From Promethearchaeota archaeon (GTDB taxonomy: Archaea; Asgardarchaeota; Lokiarchaeia; Sigyniarchaeales; SOKP01): 32,000 nt of DNA. The stretch covers positions 300,001 through 332,000 of the forward strand of contig JAUWGH010000001.1 of assembly GCA_030606485.1 (NCBI GenBank), in the 5' to 3' direction. Of this stretch, positions 3,573 through 15,294 are shown piece after piece. Position numbers and translations under genes: made by a program. Position 1 is the stretch's first letter. The number at the start of each line of letters is the position of its first letter. Under the pieces are notes generated by a model. The model did not search any database. It was not told the origin of the DNA and was given only the letters and a program-made list of their open reading frames with translations.

Positions 3573-4361
3573 TTAATTCAGTGAATTAAAAATTAAAATT
3601 ATCGCCAATACTATACAAATTAATATGATAATTAGCCCTAAAAAGTTGTATTTACGTTTAAATCCCCGGTTTTGAGATAATTCACTTGGGTTATTGGTAT
3701 TATCATATTGAGTCATTACTGTTTCTGTTTGTGTGGTCTCTATCATTTGAGTGGTTGCCTGTTTTTTAATTATCTTATCTAATGAATTCCATGCTTTATC
3801 AATTGATTCTTTTACTTCTTGAGAAATTTCCTCATCAGGTATTTCAAATATTTGGGTTGTAGTATCTAATCCTACAGTCAGTTTGTATTGTTCGGTAAAT
3901 TCTTTATCAACTAATGCACTTAGAATGGTAGTTTTGCCAACGGCTGCTGGTCCTGCAAGAACGACTTTAAAATTATAATTTTCTTTATCAATAATTTGCC
4001 CCAATTTAGGGGGAGAGCGTATATCCATTAAGGCTAATAAAGCCATCTTGTCAAATAACTTTTTAATATTTAAACCTGATAACGCTGAAGTTTCTATATA
4101 TTCCAGTAAGCTATACCTATGAACAACATCAAGGATTTTTTTTTTCCCCATTAAGATGCCAAGATCTTTCTCGAGATCCTTTTTATTTCCCACGAGAATA
4201 ATTGGGATATTTCCAGCTTTTACTCGTATCTCATTATAATATTTTTCAAGTCTATCGAAAGTATCCGGGCGGGCTAAATCAAATATTAGAGCGATTATCG
4301 AAGCGCCTTTAAAGAAATCACTCTTAAAAAATTCGAATCTTTCCTGTCCACCGATCTCCAA
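3573..4361 (-). CDS. Rab/Ras-like small GTPase, circularly permuted (G3-G4-G5-G1-G2), with C-terminal transmembrane anchor
   Basis: EIGGQERF (G3-like, aa 2-9), LVGNKKD (G4, 59-62), ETSAL (G5, 90-94), KVVLAGPAAVGKT (G1, 137-144), TVGLD (G2, T162), then a T/Q-rich linker and hydrophobic FLGLIIILICIVLAIILIF (240-258). Start uncertain: the frame is open up to 4391. Confidence 0.85.
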   Translation of the reverse strand: MEIGGQERFEFFKSDFFKGASIIALIFDLARPDTFDRLEKYYNEIRVKAGNIPIILVGNKKDLEKDLGILMGKKKILDVVHRYSLLEYIETSALSGLNIKKLFDKMALLALMDIRSPPKLGQIIDKENYNFKVVLAGPAAVGKTTILSALVDKEFTEQYKLTVGLDTTTQIFEIPDEEISQEVKESIDKAWNSLDKIIKKQATTQMIETTQTETVMTQYDNTNNPSELSQNRGFKRKYNFLGLIIILICIVLAIILIFNSLN

Positions 4362-4544: not shown

Positions 4545-7301
4545 TTAAATTTTTAAGACTTTCTTTTCCAAGGTTAATTCTAATGCTTCTTGCATAGCTT
4601 TTTCGTATATATCAATCTTAAATTTATTATGAAACGGGGATATTTTTGTCCCAAGTTTTGCCATTTTGTATAAAGCTTTTGGAAAGACTCCGATAGCTCC
4701 TTCCACAAGATTTGCTGCTCTCTCCAATTCATTAATTGTATTATCATCATAACCTCCGAAAAGTCCATCAAGGAAAGCATAGAAAAATATAAATCCAAAA
4801 ATTCCGATTATGAACAAGATAGCTGTGTTTATTATCAAATCACCTAGAGGAATCATCCAGATTAAATCTCCGACGATTGATAATACCAAAAAGTTTACAA
4901 TAGCTGCAAGGGCAGGAACTAAGAATGTTTTAAATGGATATACTTTATATGTTGTTATCTTGTAGCGAACAATAATCCACAGTAGGATCCCCTTCAAAAT
5001 TACTGCCGGTATATAAGCGAATAATACTGCCTCCATATTTTTCAGCCAAATGACTAAAATTATTATTAGTATAGCCCTCGACGTTTGTTCCATTATCCAA
5101 ACAAAAGCAGCTAAGCCTGTTTTTCCGGTTCCTTCAAGGATTGCATCACCTAGCCAACAAAATACTCCAAATGTATGAAAAATCAGTAAAGGATACAGAA
5201 ATTTTACTGCTGGCCCCCCATATTCAATTCCTGCTGCACCCACAATAAATTTTGCACCAATTGCAAAAAGAACCGAGACTATAAAAAACGCGAAATAATT
5301 GGCCCACCTAAAGCCCTGATAGATATATAGTCTTGTTAAGGTTGGCTTTCCATGTTCATATGATTCACTATATGCTCCTAATAATGATTGGGCATATAAT
5401 GCAACAATTTGTACAATCATGCCAATCCCCCAACATAAATTAAAATATCCTAGCTCGTTTGAATAATTCGCAATAAACATACTCGTGACTATTATCTGTA
5501 TAAACCAGCCAATTTGTACAAAAGATTCTCCAAATGCTAATTTTGATCCATATTTTATAGATTCGTTAAATTCATCTTTTGTAAAATCAATTCGAAAAAC
5601 AGTTTTAACAGAAAATCCCTGTTTTTTGAATAATATCATGGAGAATAAAAATGTAACCCAATAATCGAAATATCTTGCAATAGCATATCCAATTCCTGCT
5701 CCCAATGCTTCTCCAATAATCGGATTTGCAGCGCCCCACATTCGACCCAAATAACAAAAGATCATTTGTCCTACCAAAAGCCAAATCACTTCCCATGCAA
5801 CATAGGTTATAAGATGTAAGTCTGCTTTTTGCATTCCTTGGAAGGTGTACATAAATACTAAGAAGAAACCGGGATATTGAACCAAAGAAAAAGTTACAAA
5901 AATCCAACTCATGTGTGCTATATTTGTCATTGGAAATATTATTGACCCAATAAACGCGAATATACATACCTGAATTAAACCAGTTAGTAGTTGCCACCAA
6001 ACAAAGATTTGTATGTAATGTACTGCCTTCTCAGGATTTTTTACTCTATATTGAGCAAAGTATTTGGCTAATGCGAATGACGTACCAAGGTCAAACACCA
6101 GCCAAGCAATTTGGAATATATTATAAGCGTAATAATACCAACCAGCAGCTTGAGGATAAGGTTGGATAATTTGGGGCATTACAAAACTGGAAATTAATAA
6201 TTGAGGGATAACCAAGATTAAGCTGATAAAAAGAGTAAAAAGAAAGCCACCCAATTGCCTATGAATTCCAATTACTTCCCAATCATCTTTTAAGTCAATT
6301 TTTGCCTCGATTTTCCCTTTAAGTTCTTCTTCTTCTTCTCTCCTTTTTCTCTCCTCTTCTTCTGCTTGTAATCTCAATGTTTCAATAGTTGCTTGATCCA
6401 TTTTGGATTCGGATTTTTTCCTCATCATTACGAATAATGAAACTGCCAAGATTGCCAAGCATATAACAACTATCAGTATAATTATCTGATCTCTGAGATG
6501 TGGAACTGGGGAAAATGCCCATTGACTGTATTTTTGATATTGTTCACCTATACTTTCAAACGCCATTGTGTATAGTAAATAATTAAAATAGGGCCATAGA
6601 ACAAAATGAATATTAGCACCTTCTTCCACCCATCCTGTAAATAAAAGTATATTTCCGTTTCCTTTTGCCATTTCTACTAATATAGGCTGGCGATACAGAT
6701 CAATTTCTAAATTTTTTGAAGCCGGATAAACATCAATCACTCTATCAATGGAATTGTTAAAATCTTGAGTTGGAATAACTGTCATATTCCCTATAATCAT
6801 ATCAGGAGCAGAATTCCAATCAATATTTTGGCTGATTGGATGTGAAATATCTCCTACGACGAATAAATTTGATTCACTATTTTTTTGAAAATTTGCATCG
6901 GTAATTATTATTTGAAAATCTTCTAAGAGTGTAGCATCATTATGTAAATTTTGCCCCATAAAGATTATACACGAACCGCCACTATCCACGAAATTTCCTA
7001 TAAGGGATATCTCTGAGGTGTCCAAAGAAGCATCAAATAGAACGATGATATCAACCGAAGGATCGATCGAGGTAATTGGAGTTAAATCTGAAACGATTGT
7101 AATATCAAAATTATCCTGGTCGACTTGTATGCTCTGTCGAAAATGAGAATCGGTTCCTTTACTAATTACCAAGAGATTTTTTTTATCTGCTCCTTGACCG
7201 CCTGAAGGAATAATTAAAAGAATAAAACTCATACCACTTATAAACAGCGCAATTAGGCCTATTACTAATAACTTTGATATTTTTTGATTAGATTTTACCA
7301 T
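4545..7301 (-). CDS. MOP-superfamily (polysaccharide/oligosaccharide flippase, MATE-like) transporter fused to an N-terminal extracytoplasmic domain
   Basis: N-terminal TM/signal, ~230-aa soluble alpha/beta domain (LLVIS..., DIIVLFD..., GGSCIIFMG), a TM helix, charged coil (EEEERKRREEEEE), then ~12-14 TM segments with MOP-like features (FDLGTSFALAKYFAQYR, ILEGTGK). Confidence 0.7.
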   Translation of the reverse strand: MVKSNQKISKLLVIGLIALFISGMSFILLIIPSGGQGADKKNLLVISKGTDSHFRQSIQVDQDNFDITIVSDLTPITSIDPSVDIIVLFDASLDTSEISLIGNFVDSGGSCIIFMGQNLHNDATLLEDFQIIITDANFQKNSESNLFVVGDISHPISQNIDWNSAPDMIIGNMTVIPTQDFNNSIDRVIDVYPASKNLEIDLYRQPILVEMAKGNGNILLFTGWVEEGANIHFVLWPYFNYLLYTMAFESIGEQYQKYSQWAFSPVPHLRDQIIILIVVICLAILAVSLFVMMRKKSESKMDQATIETLRLQAEEEERKRREEEEELKGKIEAKIDLKDDWEVIGIHRQLGGFLFTLFISLILVIPQLLISSFVMPQIIQPYPQAAGWYYYAYNIFQIAWLVFDLGTSFALAKYFAQYRVKNPEKAVHYIQIFVWWQLLTGLIQVCIFAFIGSIIFPMTNIAHMSWIFVTFSLVQYPGFFLVFMYTFQGMQKADLHLITYVAWEVIWLLVGQMIFCYLGRMWGAANPIIGEALGAGIGYAIARYFDYWVTFLFSMILFKKQGFSVKTVFRIDFTKDEFNESIKYGSKLAFGESFVQIGWFIQIIVTSMFIANYSNELGYFNLCWGIGMIVQIVALYAQSLLGAYSESYEHGKPTLTRLYIYQGFRWANYFAFFIVSVLFAIGAKFIVGAAGIEYGGPAVKFLYPLLIFHTFGVFCWLGDAILEGTGKTGLAAFVWIMEQTSRAILIIILVIWLKNMEAVLFAYIPAVILKGILLWIIVRYKITTYKVYPFKTFLVPALAAIVNFLVLSIVGDLIWMIPLGDLIINTAILFIIGIFGFIFFYAFLDGLFGGYDDNTINELERAANLVEGAIGVFPKALYKMAKLGTKISPFHNKFKIDIYEKAMQEALELTLEKKVLKI

Positions 7302-9307: not shown

Positions 9308-9377
9308 CCTTTTCAGCTTAGAATTTTAACTAAATCTTTCAATAACTAAATGAGATTCAAATAGCATATTTTAGTGA

Positions 9378-9433
9378 AGGTATACTCCTTATTAAAAATC
9401 TTCATCTAAAAGTAATATTTAATCATGAGATTT
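9378..9433 (+). repeat. 56-bp direct repeat, left copy; decayed copy of the helicase 3' end
   Basis: aggtatactccttattaaaaatcttcatctaaaagtaatatttaatcatgagattt matches 11741-11796 at 53/56. On the minus strand it reads KSHD*ILLLDEDF* versus helicase KSHDKILLFDEDF*. Confidence 0.95.
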
Positions 9434-9613
9434 ACATATATTTTAGACTATCTTTTTTTGAATATTCTGTTGTAAATATTATAAAAATTCTGCGCCCCTC
9501 TCTTACTTAAATACCCAAATTCGTTAGATTTTTTAATAAAAATAGAATTATCAATAAATTTCTCATGAAATCCTAATTAAATCTTATCTTAAAATAAAAA
9601 TAATGATTAAAAA

Positions 9614-11758
9614 GTGACTAAAAATTTTTCTCAAGTAGAATTAAACTTCTTAAAAAGTAAAGGGATTAATATAAAAAATCTTAAGACAAGATGGGCATGG
9701 GTTAATGAAAATCTTGCTGTTGAATTTTACCGCGATTTCTTAATACCTTATTTTAAAAAAGTACCAACCAATAACGAGTTGGACGCTCATGGATTTAGAG
9801 GATTTAGATATGCAGTTGGTCGTATTAGGAAAAAAATGACCGAAATCACAAAAGCGGCGGGATATAAACCACATTTCGAAGTAAAATATAGGGATTTGTC
9901 ATTTGAAGATTTGGTTGAGCTCTATATATATAAAATTTACCCGGAATTAAAGGAGAAACTCAAACTTTCCAAAGAACAACCTCCAACTCAATTGCAAATG
10001 GAAACAAATGGATATCGCGGATTCATAGATGCAATTTATAAGAGAGGTAGAAATATTCCAGATTTACAAAAAGCTGCGGGTTTTAAACCACTTAAAGAAT
10101 TTAATTATGCAGGCAAATCGTTCGTAGAACTAGTGGAGATGTTTTTAAATGAAATTTACCCAGATTTAAGGAAGAAGTTAAAACTACCAGAGGGGGAACA
10201 CCCCAAAAAGGAAGATATTGATAAATACTATAATGGTTTACTTAAAGCACTTGGACGAATAGGTAAAACTTATAATAACCTTGCGAAAGCAGCTGGCTTC
10301 ATGCCGAGGATGGAGCATAAATATATTGAAAAATCTTTTGAAGAACTCGTTGAAATGTTTAAAAATGAAATATATCCAGCTCTCGTGAAAAAATTATCAT
10401 TACAGAAGAGTGTGGCTCCAACTAGAGACCAAGTAGAAAAAAATTTTCGTGGTTTTACAAATGCTTTAACCAATATGAAAAAATATTATCCTGAATTATT
10501 AAGAATAGCAGGATTTGAACCGAAATATGAGCAAAAATATAGAGATATGAATTTAAAAGATTTAGTGGAATTTTTTTTAGAAGAAATATATCCATTTGTA
10601 AAAACAAAACTCACAGAAAAGGGATTGAATCTTGGAGATAAAGAAGCTCCCACCGTAAAGCAAATTCGAAAATATGGATATGGCGGTTTTATTCAGAAAT
10701 TATATAAAATTACATCATATAATGATTTAATAGAAGCTGTTGGGTTAGAACCTAATGTTGAATATCGATATGTAGATATGGATTTTAAAGATTTAGTCGA
10801 TTTTTTCAAAACACAAATTTATCCTGATGTGAAATCCCAAATAATAATTGGAGAAAATGAAGCTCCTAGCAAATTAGAATTATGCGATTTGGGCTATACT
10901 GGATTTTTTGATGCAATTTATCGAACTGGAAAAACTTATTTTCAATTAGTGAAAGAAATGGGTTTTATACCAAGACAATCAATTGGATCTGAATTAGGAA
11001 CATTAAATCATAAGGCTATTAATTTTTTAATCTCAGATTGGGTTAACCAAGATAAATCTCCTAATATAATATATTATATCGAGGTAAAATTATTCGATCC
11101 AGTGAATGAATTTAGAATTGATGGATTTTTAATTAACAACAAGATAATCCAAAACCATATAACTTACAATTTTAAAAATTGGATATATAAACAAATTGAT
11201 AATCTCTCTCAGAAAAAGCTTTTGGTTGGATTAATTGATAAAATAATCGATAAAAAATTCTATTTATTTGATTATTCCAATGCATACTTTAACCGTTTTA
11301 ATAAAGTAAATTTAAAAATGGTGGCATCAAAAATTATTAAGTATCGGAAAAATAATTTAGCGAATTTATTTCTTGTGGGGACAAAATGGCCATATCATGG
11401 ACTGTATATTATTAAACTTCCAGAATACATAAATTATGGTATTAAAAAAGTACATACCGCAAATACAATTCTTATCAGTCATGTTCTTTTTGCCAAATTG
11501 ATAGGATTGGATGGTTCATTTCTCCAAAAATTTAAAGAAATTATTTCTTGTAATCAGAAAGATGATTTAAATAATTTATTTAAAATCATTGAAGCTTATG
11601 AAAAGAAAGAAATAAGAACACATCAAACTAAGGATTTAACGAAATTCCTTAAGAAATCATCTAATGTTCAAATAAAAATAAATAGCTATTTGTCTGAATT
11701 ATTTAATTTCTATATTGATTTTACAACTTTAGATAAATGGAGGTATAGTCCTTATTAA
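9614..11758 (+). CDS. Tandem-repeat protein (six ~72-77 aa repeats resembling homing-endonuclease-associated repeats) with a putative C-terminal PD-(D/E)XK-like nuclease
   Basis: Repeat consensus IYPxL..KL.L....P(T/S)..ql...gyrGF..Al.r.gk.y..L.kaAGF.P..e.kY.d.sf.eLVe.F. C-terminus has GTLNH, YYIEVKL, RIDGFLI, YLFDYS, KIIKY. Nuclease assignment is by motif resemblance only. Confidence 0.65.
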   Translation: MTKNFSQVELNFLKSKGINIKNLKTRWAWVNENLAVEFYRDFLIPYFKKVPTNNELDAHGFRGFRYAVGRIRKKMTEITKAAGYKPHFEVKYRDLSFEDLVELYIYKIYPELKEKLKLSKEQPPTQLQMETNGYRGFIDAIYKRGRNIPDLQKAAGFKPLKEFNYAGKSFVELVEMFLNEIYPDLRKKLKLPEGEHPKKEDIDKYYNGLLKALGRIGKTYNNLAKAAGFMPRMEHKYIEKSFEELVEMFKNEIYPALVKKLSLQKSVAPTRDQVEKNFRGFTNALTNMKKYYPELLRIAGFEPKYEQKYRDMNLKDLVEFFLEEIYPFVKTKLTEKGLNLGDKEAPTVKQIRKYGYGGFIQKLYKITSYNDLIEAVGLEPNVEYRYVDMDFKDLVDFFKTQIYPDVKSQIIIGENEAPSKLELCDLGYTGFFDAIYRTGKTYFQLVKEMGFIPRQSIGSELGTLNHKAINFLISDWVNQDKSPNIIYYIEVKLFDPVNEFRIDGFLINNKIIQNHITYNFKNWIYKQIDNLSQKKLLVGLIDKIIDKKFYLFDYSNAYFNRFNKVNLKMVASKIIKYRKNNLANLFLVGTKWPYHGLYIIKLPEYINYGIKKVHTANTILISHVLFAKLIGLDGSFLQKFKEIISCNQKDDLNNLFKIIEAYEKKEIRTHQTKDLTKFLKKSSNVQIKINSYLSELFNFYIDFTTLDKWRYSPY

Positions 11759-11796
11759 AAATCTTCATCGAAAAGTAATATTTTATCATGAGATTT
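11741..11796 (+). repeat. 56-bp direct repeat, right copy; contains the live helicase 3' end and the stop of the repeat-nuclease gene
   Basis: 53/56 identical to 9378-9433; the convergent stop codons overlap at 11755-11758. Confidence 0.95.
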
Positions 11797-14106
11797 TTCC
11801 AAAAGATATTCTAATATATAAATTGCGCCAGGACGAGATAATGGCCGATTATTGTTGCCACATTTTGGCGAGTATGTACAACCAGGACAGCCCGTATAAG
11901 AAGTGCATTTACATTTTTTAAGTAAATCAAATGTAGCCTCGAGTAATTTTCGAATAATTGGGTATAAACTTTCAGTGATTCCAATTCCACCTTTATACCC
12001 ATCATAAACATAAATAACTGGTTGGTTATGGTATGTATCCACATCAATAGAGACTCCACCGAGGTCCCATCGATCTATCAATGCAAATATTGGAGAGATT
12101 GCAATTATTGCATGTTCTAGGGCATGAATTGAGCCCCCCAAATTATAATTAAGAGTATCTAACTCACTCTCAAGATGTTCTGGAATTAATAACCAAAATG
12201 CTTTTGTTTCAAATTCTATGGTTGGGAGGTCTAAATCGTAATAATTTAGTATCTCTTGAGTAAGTGTTTCGACTTCTCTATATGCATAATAATCATGCTT
12301 AACTTTAACATCTCCATAATAAATATGAATTTTATCATTGAAGATCTCATTGTCTACTTTAATTTGTGATATTTCGGTATGTTTTAATGATTCCGTGTAA
12401 AAATTCAAATCTGATTTTCTAATATAGACTTTTTTCTGTTCAAAGTCAATTTCTTCTACTAAATAACTCTCCGCTTCAAATAAATATACTGCACCAGTGT
12501 GTAAATCTCTAAAGATATAACTCTCGTCCTCAGATGTTAGAATTTCCTCTTTTTTTTCTCTGGATTTTAGAATAATTTTATAATTATTCTCTGACAAATC
12601 GTCAAGGTTATATCTTCCATTTGGAAAGAATCCACCTGTCCAAAAATATTTTTGACCTCTTTTATTTAGAAGTCCTTGATTTACCAGATAACTCAAAATT
12701 TCCTTAAAATATTGTTTATCTTCAATTCCAAATGATAAGTTTTCATTTTCAGATAGTGGAATTTCATTTGCTGCACAACTAAGTTGATTTCTAAGAAGGT
12801 ATTTATTAGTTAAGGTAATAAGAAGTTTCTCGTTAGGGGCTCCAAATAATTTTTCGGGATGATGAACATAAAAGAGATCGAGAGGGTTTGGCATTGCTAC
12901 GTAAGTTGCAAAAGATATATCCTCTCCTCTGCCTGCTCTTCCAATTTGTTGGCGAAAGCTCGAAATTGTGCCAGGAAATCCAGAAATTATAGTAGCATCA
13001 AGGGTTCCTATATCCATTCCTAATTCAAGTGCATTAGTTGAGCTCACTCCCAGAATTGTATTCTCTCTCAGACCTTTTTCAATTTCTCGTCTTGTTTCTT
13101 TTCTTATTCCTGCCCTATAGCTTCGCACTCTATTTTCAATTGAAGGCATTTCCAATTTAAGGGCGTTCTTAGCCCAGATGGCGTGCAATTCACTCATTTT
13201 GCGCGAAGTTGTGAAAGTTAAAGTTTGAATTCCTTTCTTTAAATGTGCTAGGTAAATATTTTTAGTCTCTTGATGGGCTGATCTATAAGAATTTAGAATT
13301 TCATTATAAGGTAAATCCCATAAAAATACTTTTTTTTCTCCAGTAGGTGAAGTATCTTTATCAATAACATTCACCTCCTCTCCAATTAGTTTCTCCATGA
13401 ATTCTTTTGCTTCTGTTCCCATTGTTGCACTTGCGAGAATCCAAATTGGTTTAATATTAAGAGTATTTAAAATTCTTTTTAATCTTCTAATCATTAAGGC
13501 AAAATTAGAGCCAAAAATTCCCCGATAAGTATGAACCTCATCAATAACAATATATTTCAGGTTTTTTATTATTCGGTTCCAACGTCTCTTGAAACTTGGC
13601 AAATATTGATGCAATGCGTAAGAATTCGTTAGGATAATGTTTGAAGTTCGAAGAATTTGATCTTTTTTTGATTTCTCTACACTACCATCATAAACACCGG
13701 CTAAAGATGGGTCTAAATTTAAATCTTTCAAAAATTCTTGGAGTTTAGACTGCTGATCCCGAGTAAGGGCTTTTCTAGGAAAAATATAGATAGCGCAGTT
13801 ATTTTGATTTTTAAGAATTGAATTCATGACGGGGATATTGTAGCATAAGGTCTTTCCTGAAGCCGTTGAAGTGATAATCGCAGTATTTTTTTTACCAAGT
13901 ATGCTATTTACTGCATCTGCTTGATGTTTCCATAAAATAATCCCTTGATTTTTTAACCAATTACTTAACTTTTTATCTATTGGTAGGTTTAGTTCTCCAA
14001 ACTCTGCCTTCCTTTTTGGAATTGTCTCAATATGGGCTATTTGTTCATCATAAAAATCTTGATGTTTTAAGTAATTTAGAAAATCAGTAAAATCAATCAT
14101 ATTCAA
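11755..14106 (-). CDS. DEAD/DEAH-box helicase with DUF1998 C-terminus (Hrq1/MrfA/YprA-like)
   Basis: STASGKT (motif I), DEVH (II), SAT (III), TNALELGMDIG (V), QQIGRAGR (VI), HALEHA, and C-terminal Cys cluster CKCTSYTGCPGCTYSPKCGN. Confidence 0.93.
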   Translation of the reverse strand: MNMIDFTDFLNYLKHQDFYDEQIAHIETIPKRKAEFGELNLPIDKKLSNWLKNQGIILWKHQADAVNSILGKKNTAIITSTASGKTLCYNIPVMNSILKNQNNCAIYIFPRKALTRDQQSKLQEFLKDLNLDPSLAGVYDGSVEKSKKDQILRTSNIILTNSYALHQYLPSFKRRWNRIIKNLKYIVIDEVHTYRGIFGSNFALMIRRLKRILNTLNIKPIWILASATMGTEAKEFMEKLIGEEVNVIDKDTSPTGEKKVFLWDLPYNEILNSYRSAHQETKNIYLAHLKKGIQTLTFTTSRKMSELHAIWAKNALKLEMPSIENRVRSYRAGIRKETRREIEKGLRENTILGVSSTNALELGMDIGTLDATIISGFPGTISSFRQQIGRAGRGEDISFATYVAMPNPLDLFYVHHPEKLFGAPNEKLLITLTNKYLLRNQLSCAANEIPLSENENLSFGIEDKQYFKEILSYLVNQGLLNKRGQKYFWTGGFFPNGRYNLDDLSENNYKIILKSREKKEEILTSEDESYIFRDLHTGAVYLFEAESYLVEEIDFEQKKVYIRKSDLNFYTESLKHTEISQIKVDNEIFNDKIHIYYGDVKVKHDYYAYREVETLTQEILNYYDLDLPTIEFETKAFWLLIPEHLESELDTLNYNLGGSIHALEHAIIAISPIFALIDRWDLGGVSIDVDTYHNQPVIYVYDGYKGGIGITESLYPIIRKLLEATFDLLKKCKCTSYTGCPGCTYSPKCGNNNRPLSRPGAIYILEYLLEKSHDKILLFDEDF

Positions 14107-14271: not shown

Positions 14272-15294
14272 ATGGAAGATTTTACATGGAAACTGATTGA
14301 GCCAGAGCGAATAAAGAGCGAAAATTTAGGACAATATATATTGCAGAACGCACCTCCTCTATTATATACTAAAAATGATAAAGAGAAAACGTCGGTAAAT
14401 TATTTGATCTCCTTCTTTTTTATAGTTGGATTCTACCTAATCTTTCTCAGTATTTGGACTTTTATAGAAATTGATCTTGGTGGGTTTGAATTATATTTAT
14501 TTTTTTTCATTACAATCATAGTTATTGTTATTGCCTTGCCCCTATTAATACTTTATATTCGCAGAAATGTGTATAACAAGCCTATTCAATCATATTATGA
14601 ATGGTTTATTGCTCAATCTGATAATATTGAAACCATATATTCATGTTTAGTTCAATATCCGATTTTCTCGGGTAAAACTCATCCTGATAAAGGATTCAAT
14701 AGAGCTTATAAGATCTACGAAGAAACGGTGTTATCTAATACAATTGATATTACTCAAATTGAGATTTATTTTAAAATCAACAGTAAGAATCCTAATAATT
14801 TAGAATCTCTTGAACTTATCGGATATTTTTTTAAATATGGAGAAGGGCAACAATTTTTTGATGAAAATACAAATCGAGATGTATGGAGATTTTTTGAGGC
14901 GTCTAAATCAAAAGAAGATAATTTTATTTCGGTGGCGAGCTGGGATCACTTATATGAATGGAGAGATGATTTGGTTTTTGATTTTGATAAATTACATGAA
15001 TTAGCACCATGGATAATACTTCGCTGGAATAATTTAAATCTGATTCCATTAACTCCAGAAGCAAAAAAAAAATTGAGATTTGACAAAAGAAATATCACCC
15101 CCTCGCCCAAATTAAAACCATGGGCTGGAGATTTATTTAAGCAAGAATATCATAATGAAGCTGAGTATAATGATTTAAAAGTTACTCAAAATGCAATTAA
15201 AACAATTTTAGGTGATATCATTTTAAGTAAAAACTCTAAACAAATTAAGAAGAATTTTAATAATTTTAAAGAATATTTTGTAAAAAATGCCTAA
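14272..15294 (+). CDS. Hypothetical membrane protein (2 N-terminal TM + soluble domain)
   Basis: 340-aa ORF; hydrophobic segments at about aa 43-66 and 73-95; no recognised motif. Confidence 0.75.
   Translation: MEDFTWKLIEPERIKSENLGQYILQNAPPLLYTKNDKEKTSVNYLISFFFIVGFYLIFLSIWTFIEIDLGGFELYLFFFITIIVIVIALPLLILYIRRNVYNKPIQSYYEWFIAQSDNIETIYSCLVQYPIFSGKTHPDKGFNRAYKIYEETVLSNTIDITQIEIYFKINSKNPNNLESLELIGYFFKYGEGQQFFDENTNRDVWRFFEASKSKEDNFISVASWDHLYEWRDDLVFDFDKLHELAPWIILRWNNLNLIPLTPEAKKKLRFDKRNITPSPKLKPWAGDLFKQEYHNEAEYNDLKVTQNAIKTILGDIILSKNSKQIKKNFNNFKEYFVKNA

Follow-up and report, generated by a model that had tools for sequence, protein, structure and literature searches.

The open reading frame at 9614-11758 (plus strand) of the window, the 32,000-nucleotide stretch of DNA from a Loki-type Asgard archaeon that was analysed here (G+C about 30%), is on balance probably an accessory gene for a site-specific DNA endonuclease of modular build, homing or selfish in type, composed of a repeat array and a PD-(D/E)xK domain. 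In the proposed mechanism, an N-terminal array of six divergent HNH_repeat-like units would bind a long DNA site, and the PD-(D/E)xK domain would cut DNA with the aid of a divalent metal. The putative metal ligands are H466 in helix 1, E490 in strand 1, D503 in strand 2 and D553 in strand 3, and the catalytic lysine would be supplied by the following helix (K573 or K576) rather than by strand 3. The gene is a single-gene insertion/deletion difference located where an Hrq1/MrfA-like helicase gene has its 3' end, and its product most likely acts as a free-standing selfish nuclease of the homing type that is gained and lost at the helicase site.

The frame encodes 714 aa from a GTG start, and the gene calls on record include one of identical length. 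An ATG at 9604 was considered as an alternative start; it is out of frame with the open reading frame, and the GTG start was therefore retained. The features of the locus are as follows.

9614-11758, plus strand: open reading frame (P0001, 714 aa), repeat array and nuclease-like domain.
9614-9700, plus strand: N-terminal conserved segment, aa 1-29 (ELNFL ... NLKTRW), invariant in the three closest homologues.
9701-9892, plus strand: repeat 1, aa 30-93, shortened and lacking the linker (defined by profile and identity).
9893-10111, plus strand: repeat 2, aa 94-166.
10112-10327, plus strand: repeat 3, aa 167-238.
10328-10543, plus strand: repeat 4, aa 239-310.
10544-10774, plus strand: repeat 5, aa 311-387, predicted by the model to form one long helix and three short helices.
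10775-10990, plus strand: repeat 6, aa 388-459 (model).
10973-11413, plus strand: restriction-endonuclease-like core, aa 454-600 (AF2 model, structure searches, conservation), in the order helix 1 (H466), strand 1 (E490), strand 2 (D503), two-helix insert, strand 3 (D553-x-S555), helix 2 (K573/K576/Y577), strand 4.
11414-11755, plus strand: conserved C-terminal strand/helix subdomain, aa 601-714.
9375-9433, no strand assigned: left copy of a 59-nt direct repeat, a degenerate duplicate of the gene's last codons and the helicase tail.
11738-11796, no strand assigned: right copy of the 59-nt direct repeat; the two copies are identical at 55 of 59 positions.
9332-11801, no strand assigned: segment of 2470 bp replaced by 54 bp in the same-genus genome G146 (similarly in G145).
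11755-14106, minus strand: convergent Hrq1/MrfA-like helicase (DEAD, Helicase_C, WHD_HRQ1, MZB), whose 3' end overlaps the open reading frame by 4 nt.

The whole protein gave no significant family match in Pfam, NCBIfam, PADLOC or PHROGs, and a two-repeat piece matched nothing in Pfam or NCBIfam. Two candidate labels were set aside: a TPR_22 match of 18.7-21.1 bits, which lies under the cut-off of 27.2, and a precomputed PF26683 (Tyr_recomb_halo_N) label that reaches only the 'faint' level.

The N-terminal array consists of six tandem units of 64-77 aa with pairwise identities of 25-47%. The six-repeat structure proposed in the initial annotation is confirmed by a leave-one-out comparison: profiles built from five of the units detect the sixth at 39-82 bits, and 200 shuffles give no score above 9.3 bits. 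All of the scaffold motifs that the annotation had listed (IYP, P-T/S, GF, AGF-x-P and LVE-x-F) are found in the repeats. At the DNA level the repeats are visible as 68-nt copies spaced at 216-219 nt; they are too diverged to be reported by Tandem Repeats Finder. The array is net basic (pI 9.1), with basic units 1-4 and acidic units 5-6. In the model of aa 311-714, each unit is predicted to consist of a long helix, of about 20 residues, and three short helices behind it. Its neighbours in the PDB are weak (Z 4.4-4.6) and comprise residues 617-668 of SauUSI, the Slx4 C-terminal domain and an MCM N-terminal domain; no significant match to the unit was found among solved structures.

HNH_repeat (PF18780), the homing-endonuclease-associated repeat, is the known family to which these units appear to be related. 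The units fall short of the Pfam gathering threshold of 26 bits: hmmscan yielded no HNH_repeat match even at E <= 10, and a scan of the archaeon's own genome with the Pfam model leaves the open reading frame undetected. Twelve bona fide HNH_repeat units from another Asgard genus, which score 24-55 bits and exceed the 26-bit cut-off in 11 cases, were used as a comparison set. Alignment of 34 units of the present family with these 12 by hhalign gave a probability of 93.7% and an E value of 1.9e-7 over 42 columns, extending from P-T to AG-F-x-P, and the spacing from P to G is 32 residues in both. A language-model search, taken as a lead only, placed the array nearest to the HNH_repeat and Tyr_recomb_halo_N clusters (0.85-0.86). 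Because of the hhalign match, the equal P-to-G spacing and the language-model neighbours, the units are regarded, at the level of sequence comparison, as distant, enlarged relatives of HNH_repeat, so that the link to homing endonucleases drawn in the initial annotation holds as a distant kinship. HNH_repeat proteins likewise carry tandem helical units with a P-T ... G ... AG-hydrophobic-P signature fused to nucleases. The present units differ in their length of 72-77 aa, in an extra long N-terminal helix (LVE-x-F ... IYP) with a linker, and in scores below the Pfam threshold, and their nuclease partner is PD-(D/E)xK-like rather than HNH. Neither a solved structure nor a tested function of HNH_repeat was found in the literature.

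TAL effectors and TALE nucleases offered the initial annotation a model for the layout of the protein, as a possible programmable DNA reader. In the full form of this reading, each repeat would recognize one or a few bases through few variable residues, with targets that could be predicted and redesigned. The resemblance lies in a tandem array thought to bind DNA and, in artificial fusions, an adjoining nuclease. Such a layout would also fit the variable number of units among homologues (3 to 6) and the location of the most variable columns, which occupy the helix that follows P-T and one side of the GF helix, where the annotation had placed them. These columns are nevertheless spread across many surface positions and do not form a hypervariable pair, the analogue of the TALE di-residue is thus missing, and the repeats, at 25-47% identity, are far from the near-identical units of a TALE array, with which they share neither fold nor origin. 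Each unit is also much better conserved between orthologues than between neighbours: against the corresponding unit of P0003, a protein 57% identical overall, identity is 51-72%, compared with 23-45% against the other units. Judged from these alignments, the six units are old and each is conserved individually, which fits a fixed long target rather than a shuffled code. The TALE-like reading is accordingly not borne out and is considered most improbable.

The conserved C-terminal domain, which spans about 250 aa behind the array, has no match in Pfam, NCBIfam, PADLOC or PHROG, and a profile of it found nothing among PDB sequences. Whereas a word-based search recovered only two homologues, a profile search of 1.84 billion representatives yielded about 60 family members, nearly all of them from Lokiarchaeia. 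The domain lies at or near the C-terminus of almost all full-length members, which range from 300 to 1300 aa. Among 400 Asgard genomes it occurs in 50, including 46 of the 134 genomes from the source genome's own family, and in some relatives a single genome carries several diverged copies. A search of the literature did not bring up any account of this family; the aloposon paper (PMC8813620), which was considered in this context, concerns unrelated elements.

The modules preceding the domain differ between branches of the family. In the close subfamily the domain follows 3-6 of the repeats described above, while in distant members it follows classic HTH arrays (HTH_23, HTH_6, HTH_IclR, HTH_28, Sigma70_r4 and others). 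This exchange, in which paralogues carry classic HTH arrays in the place of the present array, is the best available evidence for DNA binding by the array and points, indirectly, to such a role. The initial proposal that each repeat is an HTH-like DNA-binding unit thereby gains indirect support in its functional part; its structural part stays hypothetical, the predicted unit being one long helix and three short helices with weak PDB neighbours.

Several members of the family show features of their own. Single members also carry Laminin_G_3, Big_13 or LysM domains; such company is unusual for a nuclease domain and may stem from gene calls that fuse separate genes. In a relative from genus g12 (L048), a 1372-codon open frame contains three tandem copies of 219 nt (73 codons) at 4902-5558, with 63-79% identity, and three further copies at 54-nt spacing at 4131-4319; these copies suggest recent unit duplication inside such genes. 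The member P0009 (609 aa; L058 6001-7830) lies, together with a leucine-rich-repeat gene, inside a 2-oxoacid:ferredoxin oxidoreductase cluster, where the two genes separate the alpha/gamma part (POR, POR_N) from the beta part (TPP_enzyme_C), and looks like an operon insertion.

The fold of the C-terminal domain was predicted with AF2. With three sequences the model was poor (pLDDT 56), and with 47 rows the region of aa 311-714 reached a pLDDT of 90.8. The predicted core has the order alpha-beta-beta-beta-alpha-beta, formed by a helix at 454-477, strands at 487-492 and 501-507, two inserted helices, a strand at 549-555, a helix at 567-577 and a strand at 583-589. In an exhaustive VIA structural search, most of the listed matches that cover the domain were PD-(D/E)xK nucleases, including Can2, AF1548, McrC, R2 endonuclease, Card1, Cap4, Avs3, Bax1, BglII, EcoRII, NucS and SfsA, at Z 3.9-5.5; according to the tool's own warning, Z values of 4-5.5 lie in the range where a common arrangement alone can give a match. 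The assignment to this fold class is therefore based on the consistency of the hits and not on their strength. A shape search of the Atlas returned TM scores of 0.50-0.56, with RE_Eco47II (0.52), UPF0102 (0.50) and one unnamed cluster. Foldseek, run with the good model against the PDB and BFVD, gave nothing at E <= 0.001, and restriction enzymes recurred in its list at E values above 0.01.

The candidate active site comprises the motifs noted in the initial annotation, G462-x3-H466, E490, R501-I-D503-G504 and F552-D553-Y-S555, all of which are present. Across the family H466 is conserved in 33/34 members, E490 in 34/37, D503 in 36/37 and an Asp or Glu at 553 in 36/37; S or T occupies position 555 in 37/37, and K573, K576 and Y577 are each found in 36/37. 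The position of the classical strand-3 lysine is thus S or T in every one of the 37 members, and the (D/E)-x-K signature is absent. The AF2 core, the structural neighbours and the conserved residues together support the suggestion of a PD-(D/E)XK core with a variant motif, in which a lysine of the following helix, K573 or K576, probably takes the role of the strand-3 lysine. Many PD-(D/E)xK folds are inactive, and a non-catalytic DNA-binding protein, such as a regulator or chromatin component whose nuclease-like domain would only dimerise or bind DNA, would account for the missing canonical lysine. However, the near invariance of six residues (His, Glu, Asp, Asp/Glu and two Lys) that lie on the structural elements where they would be expected, in a family whose members are otherwise 22-47% identical, makes this interpretation very unlikely.

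The PA endonuclease of influenza virus illustrates how such an active site may work. In PA, H41, E80, D108 and E119 bind the metal and K134 is catalytic (PMC3410856). The present domain shares with PA-Nter the alpha-beta-beta-beta-alpha-beta core and the order of residues: His in the helix, Glu in strand 1, Asp in strand 2, Asp or Glu in strand 3 and Lys in the following helix. It differs in lacking detectable sequence homology and in its two-helix insert between strands 2 and 3. Since PA is missing from the structural hits, the likeness concerns active-site composition only, and may indicate how the domain works rather than the group to which it belongs.

The Hrq1/MrfA-like helicase gene forms the constant surroundings of this nuclease-like gene in part of the family. 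The gene stands beside the helicase in the window, in L023 and in genus g12, and contigs of three additional runs, belonging to different studies, contain the gene-helicase junction. Around P0003, where the layout is the same, the helicase is 73% identical and the gene 57%; in genus g12, which also shows it, the corresponding values are 55% and 32-38%. Overlapping or abutting convergent 3' ends are thus kept in three lineages with helicase identity down to 55%, while the upstream neighbours differ. This persistence would favour a repair or recombination nuclease that partners the helicase, by analogy with the bacterial MrfA helicase and MrfB nuclease. MrfB, however, has a different fold, and the convergent orientation means that the gene and the helicase do not form one operon. 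Close relatives retain the helicase without the nuclease-like gene, and other members of the family (P0009, P0023 and the HTH-array forms) do not adjoin any helicase. A role as a dedicated repair partner is therefore regarded as quite unlikely.

A 340-aa protein (p340; 14272-15294, plus strand) is encoded divergently from the helicase and has no match in Pfam, PADLOC or PHROG. It is kept beside the helicase in all lineages examined, at 37-88% identity, and may be the helicase's real partner.

A presence/absence polymorphism of the gene at this fixed site is observed in related genomes. In the same-genus genomes G145 and G146, whose helicases are 91-92% identical, an SDR gene directly follows the helicase with no nuclease-like gene between them. 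Genome G147 (helicase 95%), which is 100% complete, is devoid of any family member, and the gene next after the helicase in G148 is a different one. The right copy of the direct repeat that flanks the gene in the window contains the last 7 codons of the open reading frame and, on the other strand, the final 13 codons of the helicase together with its stop. This copy supplies the present helicase tail, and the left one is its degraded duplicate. Flanking direct repeats were sought around 11 other family members and none was found. Metagenome contigs from four runs, which are fragmentary, contained no gene-skipping joint, empty site or circular form, and none of the runs listed as containing the sequence is an RNA run.

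The 59-nt repeat and the missing segment admit several candidate mechanisms, namely a single crossover of a small circle, the footprint of homing, or a local rearrangement. Each of the lineages compared (the window, L023, L039, L042 and L043) ends its helicase with a different stretch of 5-15 residues, although the Zn-binding domain that immediately precedes this stretch is conserved; the helicase tail seems to be remodelled wherever the neighbouring gene comes or goes.

The strain variability of the gene would also fit a defence nuclease that acts alone, similar to restriction or type IV enzymes, whose array would recognize foreign or modified DNA for degradation by the PD-(D/E)xK domain. Such a role would be compatible with the multiple diverged copies that some relatives have within one genome, as well as with structural neighbours that include the effectors Can2, Card1, Cap4, McrC, Avs3 and LmuA. 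Nevertheless, PADLOC and PHROG returned no match, the nearby genes include neither a methyltransferase nor a sensor partner, and the gene sits among housekeeping genes at a fixed place beside one helicase gene across genera, which is unusual for defence genes. A defence function is thus unlikely.

Repeated gain by homing at one site is a candidate reading of the gene's history, and simple inheritance is another. The gene diverges in step with its neighbours: in the lineage of P0003 its 57% identity accompanies 73% for the helicase and 51% for p340, and in genus g12 its 32-38% accompanies 55% for the helicase and 37-40% for p340, the comparison as a whole covering few taxa. Because the divergence scales in this way, an old vertical residence with losses fits as well as homing.

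Free-standing homing endonucleases with modular DNA-binding regions are known from the I-TevI type, and I-Ssp6803I is a PD-(D/E)xK example. The present system resembles these enzymes in that a lone nuclease gene occupies a set position next to a conserved gene in some genomes and is missing there in others, and in that the nuclease domain is linked to distinct DNA-binding modules, putative in the present case. It differs from the I-TevI and I-Ssp6803I types in its nuclease family, its six-unit array and the lack of an intron or intein, and the flanking 59-nt direct repeat is not typical of homing. A more far-reaching proposal is that Lokiarchaeia possess a private family in which a His-Glu-Asp-Asp-Lys variant of the PD-(D/E)xK fold is combined with exchangeable small modules of HTH type, either 3-6 HNH_repeat-like units or classic HTH. 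With every unit contributing a small number of base pairs, the recognition site would be long and able to evolve, and the protein would propagate its own single-gene element, with no integrase, into the helicase 3' end, leaving the 59-nt duplication. Taken as a whole, this extended proposal is speculative and rather improbable.

The combination of DNA-binding modules with a nuclease, encoded by an accessory single gene, is already known, and no new principle is involved. What is new is an uncatalogued, Loki-restricted nuclease domain with a His-containing motif and a lysine whose relocated role is putative, a repeat unit of enlarged size, array exchange inside a single family, and an insertion/deletion difference with a flanking repeat at the helicase 3' end. 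These observations document a lineage-restricted nuclease domain that is absent from Pfam, together with an integrase-free single-gene insertion/deletion difference in an Asgard genome. If six separable modules do read a long cut site, the protein would constitute a natural scaffold for long-site recognition and would provide the first functional handle on the widespread HNH_repeat unit.
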